This document shows, in pieces, positions 41,131-50,463 of a stretch of 64,000 bases of DNA. The number at the start of each line of letters is the position of its first letter. Position 1 is the stretch's first letter. The position numbers and the translations under genes were made by a program. Source of the DNA: Candidatus Latescibacterota bacterium (GTDB lineage: Bacteria > Latescibacterota > UBA2968 > UBA8231); assembly GCA_965204725.1 (NCBI GenBank), contig OZ242005.1, positions 2,400,001 through 2,464,000 on the forward strand, given 5' to 3'. The notes below the pieces were generated by a model. It searched no databases. It was not told the DNA's origin and was given only the letters and a program-made list of their open reading frames with translations.

Positions 41131-41252
41131 GTTGCGTTGAATAAGCCAGAATAAGCCAGAATAAGCCAGAATAAGCCAACTCATTAAATCACAAATAGTT
41201 GCGTTATTAGAACACCGAATAAGCCAAATAAGCCAAGCTATTAAATCACAAG
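41131..41252. repeat. AT-rich nested repeat: (GAATAAGCCA)x4 plus a second degenerate copy with ATTAAATCACAA
   Basis: GAATAAGCCA tandem at 41139-41178, two further units at 41217-41236. ATTAAATCACAA at 41183 and 41240. GTTGCGTT at 41131 and 41198. Confidence 0.9.
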
Positions 41253-42628
41253 CATTTCCATCGGGCACCGCGTCCGCGTCCCTCCGCAACAGCTAGACCG
41301 GCCGACCGCAAAATCTCCAGATCGGCCCGCACTTGGCGTTCCGTTGCCCCGCCCCCAAGCCTCGACAGAATCTCCCGCAACGCAAGGCCCGTCGTGGAAA
41401 ATTGCTCAAGGATGGCCAAGACTTCTCGCTGGCGTTGGGTAATTTCGCGTTCCTCCCGAAGCGGCGGCCGGAAACGAACGGTTACACATCCGCCAGCGTC
41501 TTCTATTGCTAGCTTGGGCAAGCCGGCTTTCTCTATCAGTTCTGCCATCTTGAGCGTCCCGCGTCCCCACGCCTCAATTAACCCGCGCCGGTAGAACACC
41601 CGGGCGATTAGGGGATTCCAAGGAAGCGATTCGTGTGGAGCAAACAAGGCTTCGGCCGTCAGACCAAAGTGGAGGGCACCCGAGGAGGTTATTTCGAGCT
41701 TATCGTCGTACACGGCTACGGCCACAGAGCCGCCGCCGATGGAGTAGTCCCGGTGGCAAAAGGCATTTGCCAAAGCCTCGCGCAGCACGACGGGCGGATA
41801 AAGCGGGTCGTCCAAACGTTCAAACAGGCTCGGGGTGATGCGCCCGGCTATCGGCAGGTTTTCGCGCAGAAATAACTCCGCCTTCCTCAAGAGATCAAAG
41901 GCATTGCCGAACACTTGCCGATTGTCGAGGAACTCGGTCCGATCTACGCCCCGAAATCTGGCCACTCGCAACAGGCATTGAGGGTAAAACATCTCCAAGC
42001 GTTCAGCGCGACCGAACAATACCACGGCTGCTCGCAACAAGCGGTCCTCGTGAAGTAGCCCTAGCCCGCGCAGCAATTCCACCGGGTCGCGAGTGCCCGG
42101 ATCTTCTGCGCGTCCCCGTCGTATGGCTTCCTCTACCGTCCGCACGATTTCGGTCTGGTTGAGATCGGCCACCGTCCAGCCCGAAGCCGACTCGTTTTCC
42201 CAGCGGTGCTCGCTGTGTACCTGCTCAAGCAACAAGCGATTGTATTCGGCACGCGACATAGCTCGGTCTGTCGCTCCAACTCGACGATATGCCTGTCCGC
42301 GGTAGCTATACGGCCGGTTCTGGCCAGTCAGGACGCTCACGATCAGAACTTGGCGACCCGTTCCAAGGTCCACTCGATCAATGCTCGGAAATGCCGGTGG
42401 GTCTATTTCTGCTATCTCTTCTGCGATGTCTGTAAGCGTCCGGTCACCAACCTCTTGGCCAATAACCTGACCATTGGGTTCCACGCCGAACAACACGCGC
42501 CCGCCCCTGTGGTTCAGCATGGCGCATATAGACTTCGCTGCCTCCCTGCGTTGACCGGTGCTGCGCTTCAGTTCCAACGTCTCCGATTCGCCAGCAGCGG
42601 CCCAAGCGGCGACCTGATCGGGGAGCAT
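41246..42628 (-). CDS. Schlafen/AlbA_2 domain protein with HATPase_c_4 (RecG C-terminal-like) domain and winged helix
   Basis: 'GESETLELKRS', 'ICAMLNHRGGRVLFGVEPNG', 'YRRVGATD', 'LREALANAFCHRDY', 'NPLIARVF', 'EAWGRGT', 'GRGRGARW'. Confidence 0.85.
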   Translation of the reverse strand: MLPDQVAAWAAAGESETLELKRSTGQRREAAKSICAMLNHRGGRVLFGVEPNGQVIGQEVGDRTLTDIAEEIAEIDPPAFPSIDRVDLGTGRQVLIVSVLTGQNRPYSYRGQAYRRVGATDRAMSRAEYNRLLLEQVHSEHRWENESASGWTVADLNQTEIVRTVEEAIRRGRAEDPGTRDPVELLRGLGLLHEDRLLRAAVVLFGRAERLEMFYPQCLLRVARFRGVDRTEFLDNRQVFGNAFDLLRKAELFLRENLPIAGRITPSLFERLDDPLYPPVVLREALANAFCHRDYSIGGGSVAVAVYDDKLEITSSGALHFGLTAEALFAPHESLPWNPLIARVFYRRGLIEAWGRGTLKMAELIEKAGLPKLAIEDAGGCVTVRFRPPLREEREITQRQREVLAILEQFSTTGLALREILSRLGGGATERQVRADLEILRSAGLAVAEGRGRGARWKCL

Positions 42629-42632
42629 AGGG

Positions 42633-48700: not shown

Positions 48701-49672
48701 GTAATACGTCTGGACGCGGCTGTCCATAAACACCTCAACCCGATTTTCGGCCTGTCCCGAAAGCACCCTCACCACCGCACCCCGCAGGGAGGGGTTGGAC
48801 TTCAAGACAACGATCTGACCCGGTTCAAACTCCGTTTGGTCTAGCATATACGTTGGCGCCTTTTCGGCTGTTTGCGAAGCTAGGCGGCGGGTACGCGCTA
48901 GCTCCCTTTTTTGAGCTATCTGCACGGCACTGGCGGCAAGCAGACGACCGAGCACTTCCAAGTCGATCATTCGCACATGTTCGCAGACAGCTAGTACTTG
49001 GCCAAAATGCGTATCGAGCGATTGGCGTATCTGGTGTTTTCCGTCCACGGCCTCATCGGTCATGTAGCCGACTAAAATCTCGGCGGCCTTGGCGAGGTGA
49101 TAGAGTCCGATCAATTCGAGCGCGACCACCTTGGCATGGGCCGGTTCTCGTCCTGCCAGATGGTTCTTTTCAAAATCGGATTGGGCATCGCGCAGGCGGG
49201 AGATTCGTTCCAAAGCGACATTGAGGTCGGCGTAGTGATCCCGGCGAATCAGCCGTAGCCAAACGTCGAGGACGGTCGCCCAAGTGCGCTCGGGCCAATT
49301 TTCTGAGTCAATGGGAAGCTCAGCCCAAGGTTCATTCTTCAACCACTGCGCTGCATCAGCCCCTTTGTCGCCCAATACGGCGAGGCTGCCCGCTCTCAAT
49401 AGGGATTTCCCGGCGGCGAGTGGGTCAGCCGGACGAGGCAAAGCGCACAACAAGCAAAAGGCATCAGCAGCGGCGAGTTGCAGTTGCCTTTGTTTTTGCC
49501 CATCATGCGCTGCGTTCTCAAACACGAGATCGAGCACCACCATCTCCAGCACATCAGCAGCCCGTCGGATCAATTTTTCGTCTGCCAACTCGTGCGAATT
49601 CTGTGCATGTTGAGCTAGGTTCAGCGCCTGTTGGCGCATCTCTTCCTGATCTTCGAGCAGCCAATGACTCAT
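45791..49672 (-). CDS. SNF2/RapA-family helicase with an extra ~275-aa helical N-terminal domain
   Basis: '[16 protein letters not shown]', 'IVDEAHH', 'LTATP', 'EGLDYQ', '[20 protein letters not shown]'. Overlaps both neighbours by ATGA. Confidence 0.9.
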   Translation of the reverse strand: [1293 protein letters not shown]

Positions 49673-50463
49673 GGTTCACCTCCAAGTATGCGGGCTGGAA
49701 GGGCACTGATGGCACAAGGCAGATATATGGCGATCAAGCGGCATGTTGTCGGGTATTGCAGTTTTTCCGCCATAGTTCGTCCTCGTGTCCGCAGATCCAA
49801 CTCATTGGGCTGCGTATCCCGAATCAGAACCCCAAAGAGTGCAAGAGCCTTGTTTTCCGACCCAAGGAATAGTCTAACCGCTGCCTTGAATGATGTTTCA
49901 TAGACCGTTCCTTTACAACGGGGTAGGAGCCACCTAAGAAGTTGACGAACCAAGGATAGGTTGTTTGCTAAGTTGTCTAGCTGAGGTATTAAACCGCTCC
50001 GACCGCTCATTACACTCGGTGGCGTTCTAATGTCAGTGGATGATTTCACCTCACCCAGTAGGAGGCGTGTAGCCCCATCTTCAACTATAAACCCAACCAG
50101 ATCTGCGCCTTGAAGGCTCGCATTAGGATGCCTCTTATCGCGTTTCGTGTTCCAAGGCCATATAATTCTATACTCGCGGCTCAGGTGCGCTTCAGCTACT
50201 GCTTCTCCCACCGCCCAGCTTGGTTCTTCGCTTATTTCGGCGGCCAGAATTTCCTCAAGGCTATCTCGAGCGAATCCCGTGTCGGCTAAGTCTTGAAGAT
50301 ACATTTCAAATTCGGCCTCGCCATCTTCGTCGTAAAGCCGTGCCGAAACTTCGTTGGACATAAACGAACTGAACGCATCGCCGTCTTTCATACCTACACC
50401 CTGCCAAGATACCTGACGGTCCTGTCCTTCGTAGTTTACGGTTAATAGATCTGGCTCTGTCAT
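49669..50463 (-). CDS. PD-(D/E)XK nuclease-like protein, HamA/DUF1837-like
   Basis: 'GEAVAEAHL', 'SLQGADLVGF', 'LLLGEVKSS' fit the E...D...ExK catalytic layout. Confidence 0.6.
   Translation of the reverse strand: MTEPDLLTVNYEGQDRQVSWQGVGMKDGDAFSSFMSNEVSARLYDEDGEAEFEMYLQDLADTGFARDSLEEILAAEISEEPSWAVGEAVAEAHLSREYRIIWPWNTKRDKRHPNASLQGADLVGFIVEDGATRLLLGEVKSSTDIRTPPSVMSGRSGLIPQLDNLANNLSLVRQLLRWLLPRCKGTVYETSFKAAVRLFLGSENKALALFGVLIRDTQPNELDLRTRGRTMAEKLQYPTTCRLIAIYLPCAISALPARILGGEP

Follow-up and report, generated by a model that had tools for sequence, protein, structure and literature searches.

What kind of system is encoded by four closely spaced genes for a HamA-like nuclease, an SNF2 helicase, a sacsin-type ATPase and a Schlafen protein, and do all four belong together? 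The question is raised by a locus in a 64,000-nucleotide stretch of a Candidatus Latescibacterota genome (contig OZ242005.1, positions 2,400,001 to 2,464,000; the window), whose four genes, here called g1 to g4, a preliminary description had proposed as a single candidate anti-phage operon. The reading of the locus as a defence island is supported by our analysis, which suggests a different division of the genes. We propose, with a probability of roughly 0.6, that g1, g2 and g3 form one chimeric anti-phage module, for which we infer the function, and that g4 is a Schlafen-type defence gene in its own right, which came to lie at the 3' end of this module.

All four genes are open reading frames on the minus strand (Table 1), and the arrangement described earlier was confirmed in the letters: the g1/g2 and g2/g3 overlaps both read ATGA, with GGAGG preceding the g2 start, and the junction of g3 and g4 reads TAG-CCCT-ATG, a gap of 4 nt, with AGGA upstream of g4. 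The flanking genes are unrelated and of housekeeping type, encoding a xylose-isomerase-like TIM barrel, an MFS-HEAT protein and a TPR/PMT_2 protein (Pfam). Their GC content is 0.64–0.65 (0.76–0.82 at third codon positions), against 0.50, 0.56, 0.45 and 0.60 for g1 to g4, which agrees with the lower GC remarked on for parts of the cluster. The domain classes assigned from the letters also hold, as HamA-like (PDC-M23A, 4e-98), SNF2 (DrmD, 9e-124), sacsin/TmtA with an HNH-like C-terminus, and Schlafen, and the named motifs are present and conserved: GEVK of the nuclease (D121/E138/K140), DEAH of the helicase and QNAED of the ATPase. In what follows, L numbers denote fetched loci, G numbers genomes (G000 being that of the window) and X numbers sequencing runs.

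The nuclease, the composite helicase and the Tiamat-like ATPase

The first gene matches the PADLOC profile PDC-M23A over nearly its whole length (4.1e-98, positions 6–260 of 263) and the HamA profile weakly (1.8e-4). Pfam-A gave no match on the window's g1, and PF08878 was recorded on several of its relatives. An alignment of 24 sequences shows no variation at residues D121, E138 and K140, and the catalytic E138 and K140 of HamA, as given in the available text on the HamAB structure (PMC12278908), carry the same numbers as in g1. The protein thus has the DUF1837-type nuclease and the D-ExK residues that define HamA.

The second protein, g2, is matched by two profile families that divide it between them. 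Residues 10–266 match the N-terminus of PDC-M23B and nothing further along that profile (1e-51, positions 13–275 of 1060), and residues 282–1227 match the PADLOC DrmD profile PDLC02623 with an E-value of 8.8e-124. Identity to a canonical PDC-M23B is 58% over the first ~257 residues, and a BLASTP comparison with the same protein gave no significant match past residue ~270. From residue ~279 to the end, g2 is 69% identical to the helicase of a metagenomic locus (L081), and its homology to helicases that bear a HEPN domain starts right after the HEPN domain and linker of these proteins, at TEFEPGQI, residue 279. By these alignments g2 consists of the N-terminal domain of HamB/PDC-M23B joined to the SNF2 helicase of a Tiamat-like pair, with the junction at about residues 257–279. 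The motifs GVGKT, DEAH and QRIGRIDR are intact. DrmD of the DISARM system is the best PADLOC match of the SNF2 part; a DISARM assignment was considered and rejected, as the score against the NCBIfam DrmD model is 324.6 bits, under the cut-off of 610, and no PADLOC profile match to DrmA, DrmB, DrmC or a methylase was obtained for the nine genes scanned in and around the locus.

The N-terminal domain of g2 has the fold of a known nuclease dock. An AlphaFold2 model of this region is an all-helical bundle (pLDDT 85.9), for which the best Foldseek matches are the E. coli HamB chains (TM 0.57–0.60). In VIA it aligns with HamB residues 7–326 at Z 18.4–20.5 (rmsd 3.3–3.7 Å over 228–249 residues), and the next entry after HamB has a Z of 9.2. 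In the solved HamAB complex, according to the text describing it, this N-terminal all-helical (NAH) domain of HamB holds HamA (PMC12278908). A model of g1 with residues 1–280 of g2 scored 0.76, while the best of three controls scored 0.01; the mark used for such scores is reached by 116 of 157 solved complexes and by 2 of 215 mismatched pairs. Different runs share at least 73% of contacts, and partner pLDDT is at least 80. The g1 segments in the predicted interface (51–84, 105–119 and 169–204) parallel the three HamA segments reported to touch the NAH domain (30–63, 102–117 and 159–199; PMC12278908, as far as its available text goes). The modelling thus predicts that g1 binds the g2 dock.

The third protein, g3, is a Tiamat-like ATPase of the GHL type. 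It matches Pfam SACS (2.2e-20) and NCBIfam P_loop_sacsin (2.6e-26), and its residues 3–782 match PADLOC TmtA (3e-64, profile positions 7–796 of 1302), with the alignments ending at residue 782. The ATPase motifs ELLQNAEDA (N-box) and GKFGVGF (G-box) are kept, and the family is large, with 3103 matches, many of them full length at 53–60% identity. The protein therefore has the Hsp90/sacsin-like ATPase domain of Tiamat (TmtA) and lacks its C-terminal PD-(D/E)xK (NOV_C/DUF3883) nuclease, in place of which there is an HNH-like zinc domain. In an alignment of 33 sequences this C-terminus keeps CQxC, PF, YFE and LALCPxC/H, followed by F..H..D; a model of the last 175 residues has a pLDDT of 91.6, and its top Foldseek match is EcoKMcrA (E 3e-3, probability 0.99, TM 0.33), followed by TagI, Cap5, the Cas9 HNH domain, ScoMcrA and PacI. 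A second Tiamat-like gene lies ~14 kb before the first base of the window (G000:C1:2386129-2388525); its open frame has 1072 aa and is 39% identical to g3 residues 286–1049.

Relatives of the two halves and the spread of the triad

Homologues of the two parts of g2 are found in two separate sets of loci. A profile scan for relatives of g1, with one genome per species, returned 256 loci, of which 80 were kept (L001–L080). In 75 of these 80 the gene after the g1 homologue matches g2 significantly just in its first ~250–300 residues; these genes are ~1050–1080 aa long where complete, and a few of the alignments extend through generic helicase motifs. The B gene of L007, the sole canonical one scanned, is a full-length PDC-M23B with a DEAD/ResIII/Helicase_C core that matches HamB profiles down to 7.5e-65, and on the strength of these matches canonical PDC-M23 is a relative of Hachiman. 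A g3-type gene was found in none of the 75 canonical loci. A full-length match to g2 was seen in five of the 80 loci only, all from Latescibacterota (L001–L005; 1265–1292 aa), and in all five g3 comes next. The neighbours of canonical PDC-M23 that were scanned belong to type I restriction-modification (R-M) systems, with an HsdR-type gene downstream in L007, L014, L015, L032, L063 and L078; in L032, genes for HsdM, a YhcG-type nuclease and HsdS lie upstream. The PDCs are described, in the text available, as untested candidates obtained by 'guilt-by-embedding' (PMC12988326).

A metagenome scan with g3 gave the second set, of which 80 loci were kept (L081–L160). The C-terminal domain is retained in 46 of them, and 43 of these have at least 400 nt of upstream sequence. 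In 36 of the 43, a full-length homologue of g2 residues 281–1293 is encoded on the same strand directly upstream of the g3-type gene, and the two frames usually overlap or abut. These partner helicases are mostly 1120–1220 aa long and carry an N-terminal extension of 100–190 aa, which is HEPN_Swt1 in all eight that were scanned with Pfam; all but one of 12 aligned extensions retain the HEPN motif RNRWAH (Rx4H). It is likely that a HEPN RNase is the effector of the helicase in most pairs of this kind. Neither g1 nor the dock has a match in any of the 80 loci. A PDC-S68-type gene of ~1200 aa, RecD-like, follows the SNF2/Tiamat-like pair in L117, L120 and L125.

The seven remaining loci have no SNF2 neighbour: L104–L107 and L109, with type III-size genes upstream, and L102 and L085. 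In L104, PADLOC confirmed Mod and Res upstream of the g3-type gene; the upstream genes of L105, L107 and L109 are sized like this Mod-Res pair. These seven loci favour the view that our locus is a plain defence island, made up of a Hachiman-like g1 and g2, a stand-alone Tiamat-like g3 and a stand-alone Schlafen g4, with no tie between g2 and g3. The same view is favoured by the B. cereus Tiamat, which according to the preprint text acts as a single gene (10.64898/2026.09.30.754977), and by genome G130, in which g3 is open while g1 and g2 are broken. We nevertheless consider it unlikely: the gene before the g3-type gene in 36 of 43 loci is the specific orthologue of the helicase part of g2 along its full length, g2 and g3 overlap at ATGA, g3 is without the nuclease that makes Tiamat self-sufficient, and the SNF2 part and g3 are missing together, as one block of 6168 nt, from a haplotype described below.

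Among the loci compared, the chimeric arrangement itself was seen only in Latescibacterota. We surveyed 168 genomes of this phylum, including that of the window, and found g3-type genes in 26, g1-type genes in 14, and the g1-g2-g3 triad in seven copies from six genomes, all of the window's genus. The copies in G000, in G139 (L003) and one of the two in G146 (L002) are intact; in G125 (L001) g3 ends at a contig edge. In the second copy of G146 (L004) a 1.6-kb insertion splits g3, in G141 (L005) g3 stops short at 753 aa next to an IS1595 transposase, and in G130 g1 has stop codons and g2 is spread across three frames, with g3 open. The insertion in L004 (L004:15404-17047) leaves g3 open reading frames of 283 and 1241 aa, the latter without a Pfam match, and the IS1595-family transposase of L005 follows the truncated gene at L005:16911-17783. 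The genes that flank the window's copy are shared by L003–L005, and L001 and L002 lie at other sites. Recurrence of the gene order elsewhere, which the preliminary description had named as a check, was thus obtained for g1 to g3 and did not extend to g4 as a fourth gene. Among the 120 listed of 339 clusters of dock-bearing proteins, 27 have the SNF2 architecture and 93 are of the DEAD type, and all 27 are at least 75% identical in the dock.

The frequent decay of copies would fit a further explanation, by which the locus takes no part in defence and is either a mobile remnant undergoing decay or a helicase module of the DNA-repair or chromatin type; about 14% of Tiamat-like proteins lie in non-defence neighbourhoods, according to the preprint text (10.64898/2026.09.30.754977). 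Each of the three proteins has, however, a profile match to a known or candidate defence protein, and the GC content of the genes is far under that of the host. The module also occupies at least two chromosomal sites and is present twice in one genome (L002 and L004), its canonical relatives lie inside operons of type I R-M systems, and in the copy of the window the frames are open and the motifs intact. We regard a role outside defence as highly improbable.

The Schlafen gene, a shorter haplotype and the surroundings of the locus

The fourth gene encodes a protein of a common class. It matches Pfam SLFN_AlbA_2 (PF04326; 1.4e-19) and HATPase_c_4 (2.3e-17), and its translation has E14-x4-E19-L-K21, the Ex4ExK form of the prokaryotic Schlafen (pSlfn) nuclease motif, which is given as Ex4(E/D)xK in the available text of PMC13056530. 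With its Schlafen domain, HATPase_c_4 and probable helix-turn-helix (HTH) it belongs to the Slfn-HisKinase-HTH class, which is reported there as the second most common of 55 architectures (19.2% of 5,930 pSlfns). In the same text the two pSlfn genes that protected E. coli have other architectures, and the HisKinase fusions tested are not among them. The window genome has 15 matches to the g4 family (AlbA_2/HATPase_c_4), two of them close together near 852–857 kb.

Could the four genes still be a single system, with the Schlafen protein as an obligatory component that serves, for instance, as a regulator or as a second effector cleaving tRNA? Several observations speak for it. Only 4 nt separate g3 from g4, AGGA stands upstream of g4, no terminator-like site was called between the two genes, and g4 is probably co-transcribed with g3 here. 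Near-identical contigs from two further samples bridge the pair (X5 record 16, 40503–44651; X6 record 23, 41086–47030), and g4 is thus stably beside g3 in the species-level lineage of the window. Schlafen-type genes are also found 1.3–1.5 kb downstream of canonical PDC-M23 in five of the 80 loci (L032, L035, L037, L068 and L070), and in L203 g4 follows canonical PDC-M23 and an AAA_15/21 gene. Finally, in the haplotype that lacks 6168 nt the dock is fused in frame to g4.

The comparison with other copies points the other way. Window positions 50468–42669 and 41114–38243 both match L003 by blastn, and in L003 just 153 bp separate the two; relative to this locus, which is syntenic on both sides, g4 is an insertion of 1.55 kb. 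None of the four other copies with downstream DNA read (L002–L005) has g4 after g3. Orthologues of g4 (59–72% identity) occur in 32 of 167 other Latescibacterota genomes; 20 of their contexts were fetched, with an open reading frame matching g4 called in 18, and none of the 20 contains a g3-type gene. In seven of them (L198–L202, L204 and L207) g4 directly precedes an HsdR-sized gene of ~980 aa, confirmed as type I HsdR by Pfam in two. In the canonical PDC-M23 loci a gene intervenes between the helicase and the Schlafen gene, followed by type I HsdR or another helicase, as in an island, and the 15 family matches in the window genome likewise count against an obligatory partnership. We found no mechanistic tie of g4 to g1–g3. 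Because g4 is absent after g3 in L002–L005, because the flanks are syntenic in L003, and because its orthologues stand in other contexts, we take g4 to be an independent island gene, a separate cassette outside the triad. The single four-gene system originally proposed was not borne out, and we now judge it quite improbable.

The haplotype was seen in two runs from different studies, whose contigs join position 42665/42667 to 48834/48836 and skip 6168 nt (X3, joint depth 36.4, with a side of 29 nt; X13 record 2, with a side of 53 nt). The skipped block comprises the SNF2 part of g2 and g3 minus its last ~11 codons, and of its two breakpoints one falls at the chimera junction, the other where the homology to L002–L005 ends on the right. 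Read from the g2 start, the joined frame is open for 752 codons to the stop of g4 itself, which would yield a fusion of dock and Schlafen protein. No family of such fusions was found among the 120 listed of 339 longer dock-bearing proteins, and the fusion was seen in short contigs alone. In X3 the block contig has a depth of 20.9, against 36.4 at the joint and 51–65 for the flanking contigs; contig depths being coarse, this is a weak hint of two haplotypes in one population. An in-frame skip of 252 nt in g4 (42308–42561), present in these two runs as well, drops residues ~23–107 of the Schlafen domain.

Table 1. Features of the locus, with positions in the window.
Feature	Position	Strand	Basis
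Leader upstream of g1	50464..50518	-	left end of the module's homology at ~50518
g1, HamA-like PD-(D/E)xK nuclease, PADLOC PDC-M23A, 264 aa	49669..50463	-	profile match
g2, composite protein, 1293 aa	45791..49672	-	two profile families
g2 aa 1–270, all-helical domain homologous to HamB NAH, predicted dock for g1	48863..49672	-	PDC-M23B N-terminus
g2 aa 279–1293, DrmD-like SNF2 helicase	45791..48838	-	Pfam SNF2-rel_dom and Helicase_C; PADLOC DrmD
g3, Tiamat-like (sacsin-type) GHL ATPase without the PD-(D/E)xK of Tiamat, 1053 aa	42633..45794	-	SACS, P_loop_sacsin, TmtA
g3 C-terminal 175 aa, HNH-like zinc domain	42636..43160	-	alignment, model, Foldseek
g4, Schlafen nuclease domain, HisKinase-like HATPase_c_4 and probable C-terminal winged HTH, 460 aa	41246..42628	-	Pfam, motif
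g4 cassette, absent from the syntenic L003	41115..42668	-	blastn

In blastn comparisons of the window with L001, L002 and L004 the homology begins at position 50518, ahead of g1. Promoter-like and terminator-like sites occur at the level of shuffled sequence (6 against 6.0 and 10 against 10.1 in the scan), and no promoter-like site was called in the leader. An Rfam search of 38000–54000 gave no matches. There are no direct or inverted repeats of att or IS type bounding the island; just short repeats at chance level and a 10-nt tandem repeat were found. The latter, with the unit GAATAAGCCA present four times, lies at 41139–41178 in the spacer after g4, which also holds a 25-nt repeat at 41170–41194 and 41227–41251; one run is without 20 nt at 41139, a copy-number variation.

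The uneven base composition of the triad is shared by its relatives. The mosaic of GC values in g1, g2 and g3 (0.49–0.50, 0.54 and 0.43–0.45) is common to L002–L005, and in five of seven further pairs the g3-type gene lies 3–5 points under its helicase partner. A very recent swap of g3 alone, considered as the reason for its low GC, was rejected because of this shared mosaic and of the similar dip in the other pairs.

Contig depth spikes over ~50 nt at 46980–47032 (within 46912–47295), reaching 360 in X3 and 172 in X5, and many other contigs contain this stretch and then diverge; it is probably a conserved SNF2 motif region common to other organisms. Further along the window, an open reading frame of 886 aa (36243–38903) has no match in Pfam, NCBIfam or PADLOC, and it comes after a gene for a protein of 1086 aa with F5/8 type C and CHU_C (type IX secretion) domains (32958–36218).

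A proposed mechanism and its relation to known systems

We propose that the core of the module is a gene pair widespread elsewhere, in which an SNF2 (DrmD-like) translocase directly precedes a Tiamat-like GHL ATPase whose HNH-like zinc domain is degenerate. In a lineage of Latescibacterota the NAH domain of HamB/PDC-M23B would have replaced the HEPN domain on the SNF2 helicase, with a HamA-like nuclease encoded upstream. The order of events, the trigger and the part played by g3 can be envisaged as follows. The helical dock of g2 would keep g1 inactive, while the SNF2 motor and g3 would survey DNA, to which g3 may bind through its HNH-like domain. Once phage or damaged DNA is encountered, the motor, driven by ATP, would move and thereby free or activate g1, which would then degrade DNA in the manner of HamB and HamA. 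This scheme follows that of Hachiman, where, according to the text on its structure, the helicase restrains HamA on its N-terminal helical domain, and ATP-driven ratcheting after the recognition of damaged DNA releases the nuclease (PMC12278908). The SNF2 motor and the GHL ATPase would then be a sensing and motor core, and the N-terminal module of the helicase an exchangeable effector port that here holds a HamA-type DNase in place of a HEPN RNase. In the preprint text, Tiamat-like proteins with no nuclease of their own are proposed to be fed or complemented by the helicases next to them (10.64898/2026.09.30.754977).

Several points weigh against a chimeric module of this kind. A HamAB-like complex has already been solved, so that the score of the g1-dock model may reflect likeness to it rather than binding by these two proteins. 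In HamB the coupling runs from RecA2 to the NAH domain within a Ski2-like helicase, and it is by analogy that an SNF2 motor may drive a comparable release. The HNH-like domain of g3 has no histidine at the HNH catalytic positions in the 33 aligned sequences, and because these residues are missing the role given to it here is a guess; its structural matches (best E 3e-3, TM 0.33) are weak, though consistent. Copies of the triad decay often, as in G130 (g1 and g2 broken), L005 (g3 truncated) and L004 (g3 split), and among the sequences compared the chimera is confined to one young clade. Finally, the haplotype without the SNF2 part and g3 was present in two runs, and the parts are therefore separable in nature.

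Comparison with characterised systems places the locus between two of them. Like Hachiman (HamA with the Ski2-like HamB, as in E. coli ECOR31; 8VX9, 8VXA and 8VXY), it has a DUF1837-type D-ExK nuclease upstream of a helicase whose NAH domain, recognised by its fold (Z 18.4–20.5) and by the complex model, would serve as the dock, with the same three nuclease segments in the predicted interface. Unlike Hachiman, in which the motor is a Ski2-like DEAD/DEAH helicase, the core of g2 is SNF2-rel_dom and DrmD-like, and a third conserved gene, the Tiamat-like ATPase, follows. With PDC-M23 it shares a full-length A protein and the first ~270 residues of the B protein; the remaining ~790 positions of the PDC-M23B profile, the HamB-like DEAD helicase, are replaced in g2, so that the locus has the adjacent A gene of a PDC-M23 and only part of its B gene.

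The helicase part of g2 together with g3 corresponds to the Tiamat-like Type IV groups, as these are defined in the preprint text alone: Type IV-A has an HNH-like fold without catalytic residues, and Type IV-B neighbourhoods contain a helicase fused to a nuclease (10.64898/2026.09.30.754977). Common to these and to g3 are the Tiamat-type GHL ATPase core, an HNH-like fold without catalytic residues in place of PD-(D/E)xK, and a neighbouring SF2 helicase. In contrast to Type IV-B, the N-terminal nuclease of the helicase (HEPN in the eight scanned) is gone, and a dock for a separate HamA-type DNase stands in its place. From Tiamat itself (TmtA of B. cereus, a single-gene ATPase and ssDNase), with which it shares the N-terminal sacsin/Hsp90-like ATPase and the central region, g3 differs in having no NOV_C/DUF3883 PD-(D/E)xK domain, in its length (1053 aa, against profiles of 1300–1780 positions) and in not standing alone.

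Judged from these alignments, then, the locus is a Hachiman/PDC-M23 system crossed with a Tiamat-like Type IV helicase pair, with known parts in a new combination. The remark in the preliminary description that it is not a named system stands as far as the name goes; its parts have been catalogued, as PDC-M23, as the Type IV-A/IV-B pair (in the preprint text) and as a common pSlfn architecture. Rule-based annotators would probably not name it either, because two of the three proteins match their profiles only partly. A description of a chimera of HamB dock and SNF2 helicase was not found in a non-exhaustive search of the literature, which covered the text of the preprint, and PDC-M23 does not occur as a term in the literature text searched. 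The available text of a survey of HEPN domains (PMC3710099) has no description of a HEPN-SNF2 and sacsin-like pair.

A bolder idea, which we put forward tentatively and hold to be rather doubtful, is that the NAH domain may be a portable 'nuclease leash' that has been replugged onto unrelated motors. It would here tie a HamA-type DNase to an SNF2 motor and a Tiamat-like ATPase and change the output from RNA (HEPN) to DNA, and the 6168-nt in-frame deletion would be a second rewiring, onto a Schlafen RNase-sensor. If both forms are active, the locus would be a natural experiment in which one adaptor stays while sensor and effector are exchanged.

What is understood of Hachiman and of Tiamat comes in each case from no more than one or two model proteins. 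The present locus shows that the HamA-docking domain is separable from its Ski2-like motor and can be grafted onto an SNF2 motor that usually bears a HEPN domain and is partnered by a Tiamat-like ATPase. If the triad protects, the dock alone would suffice to subject a HamA-type nuclease to a foreign motor, and the triad would offer a handle on the role that Tiamat-like proteins without a nuclease play beside helicases. It would also supply matched natural pairs, one version with HEPN and one with HamA, in which the effect of an effector swap on the outcome of infection could be followed.

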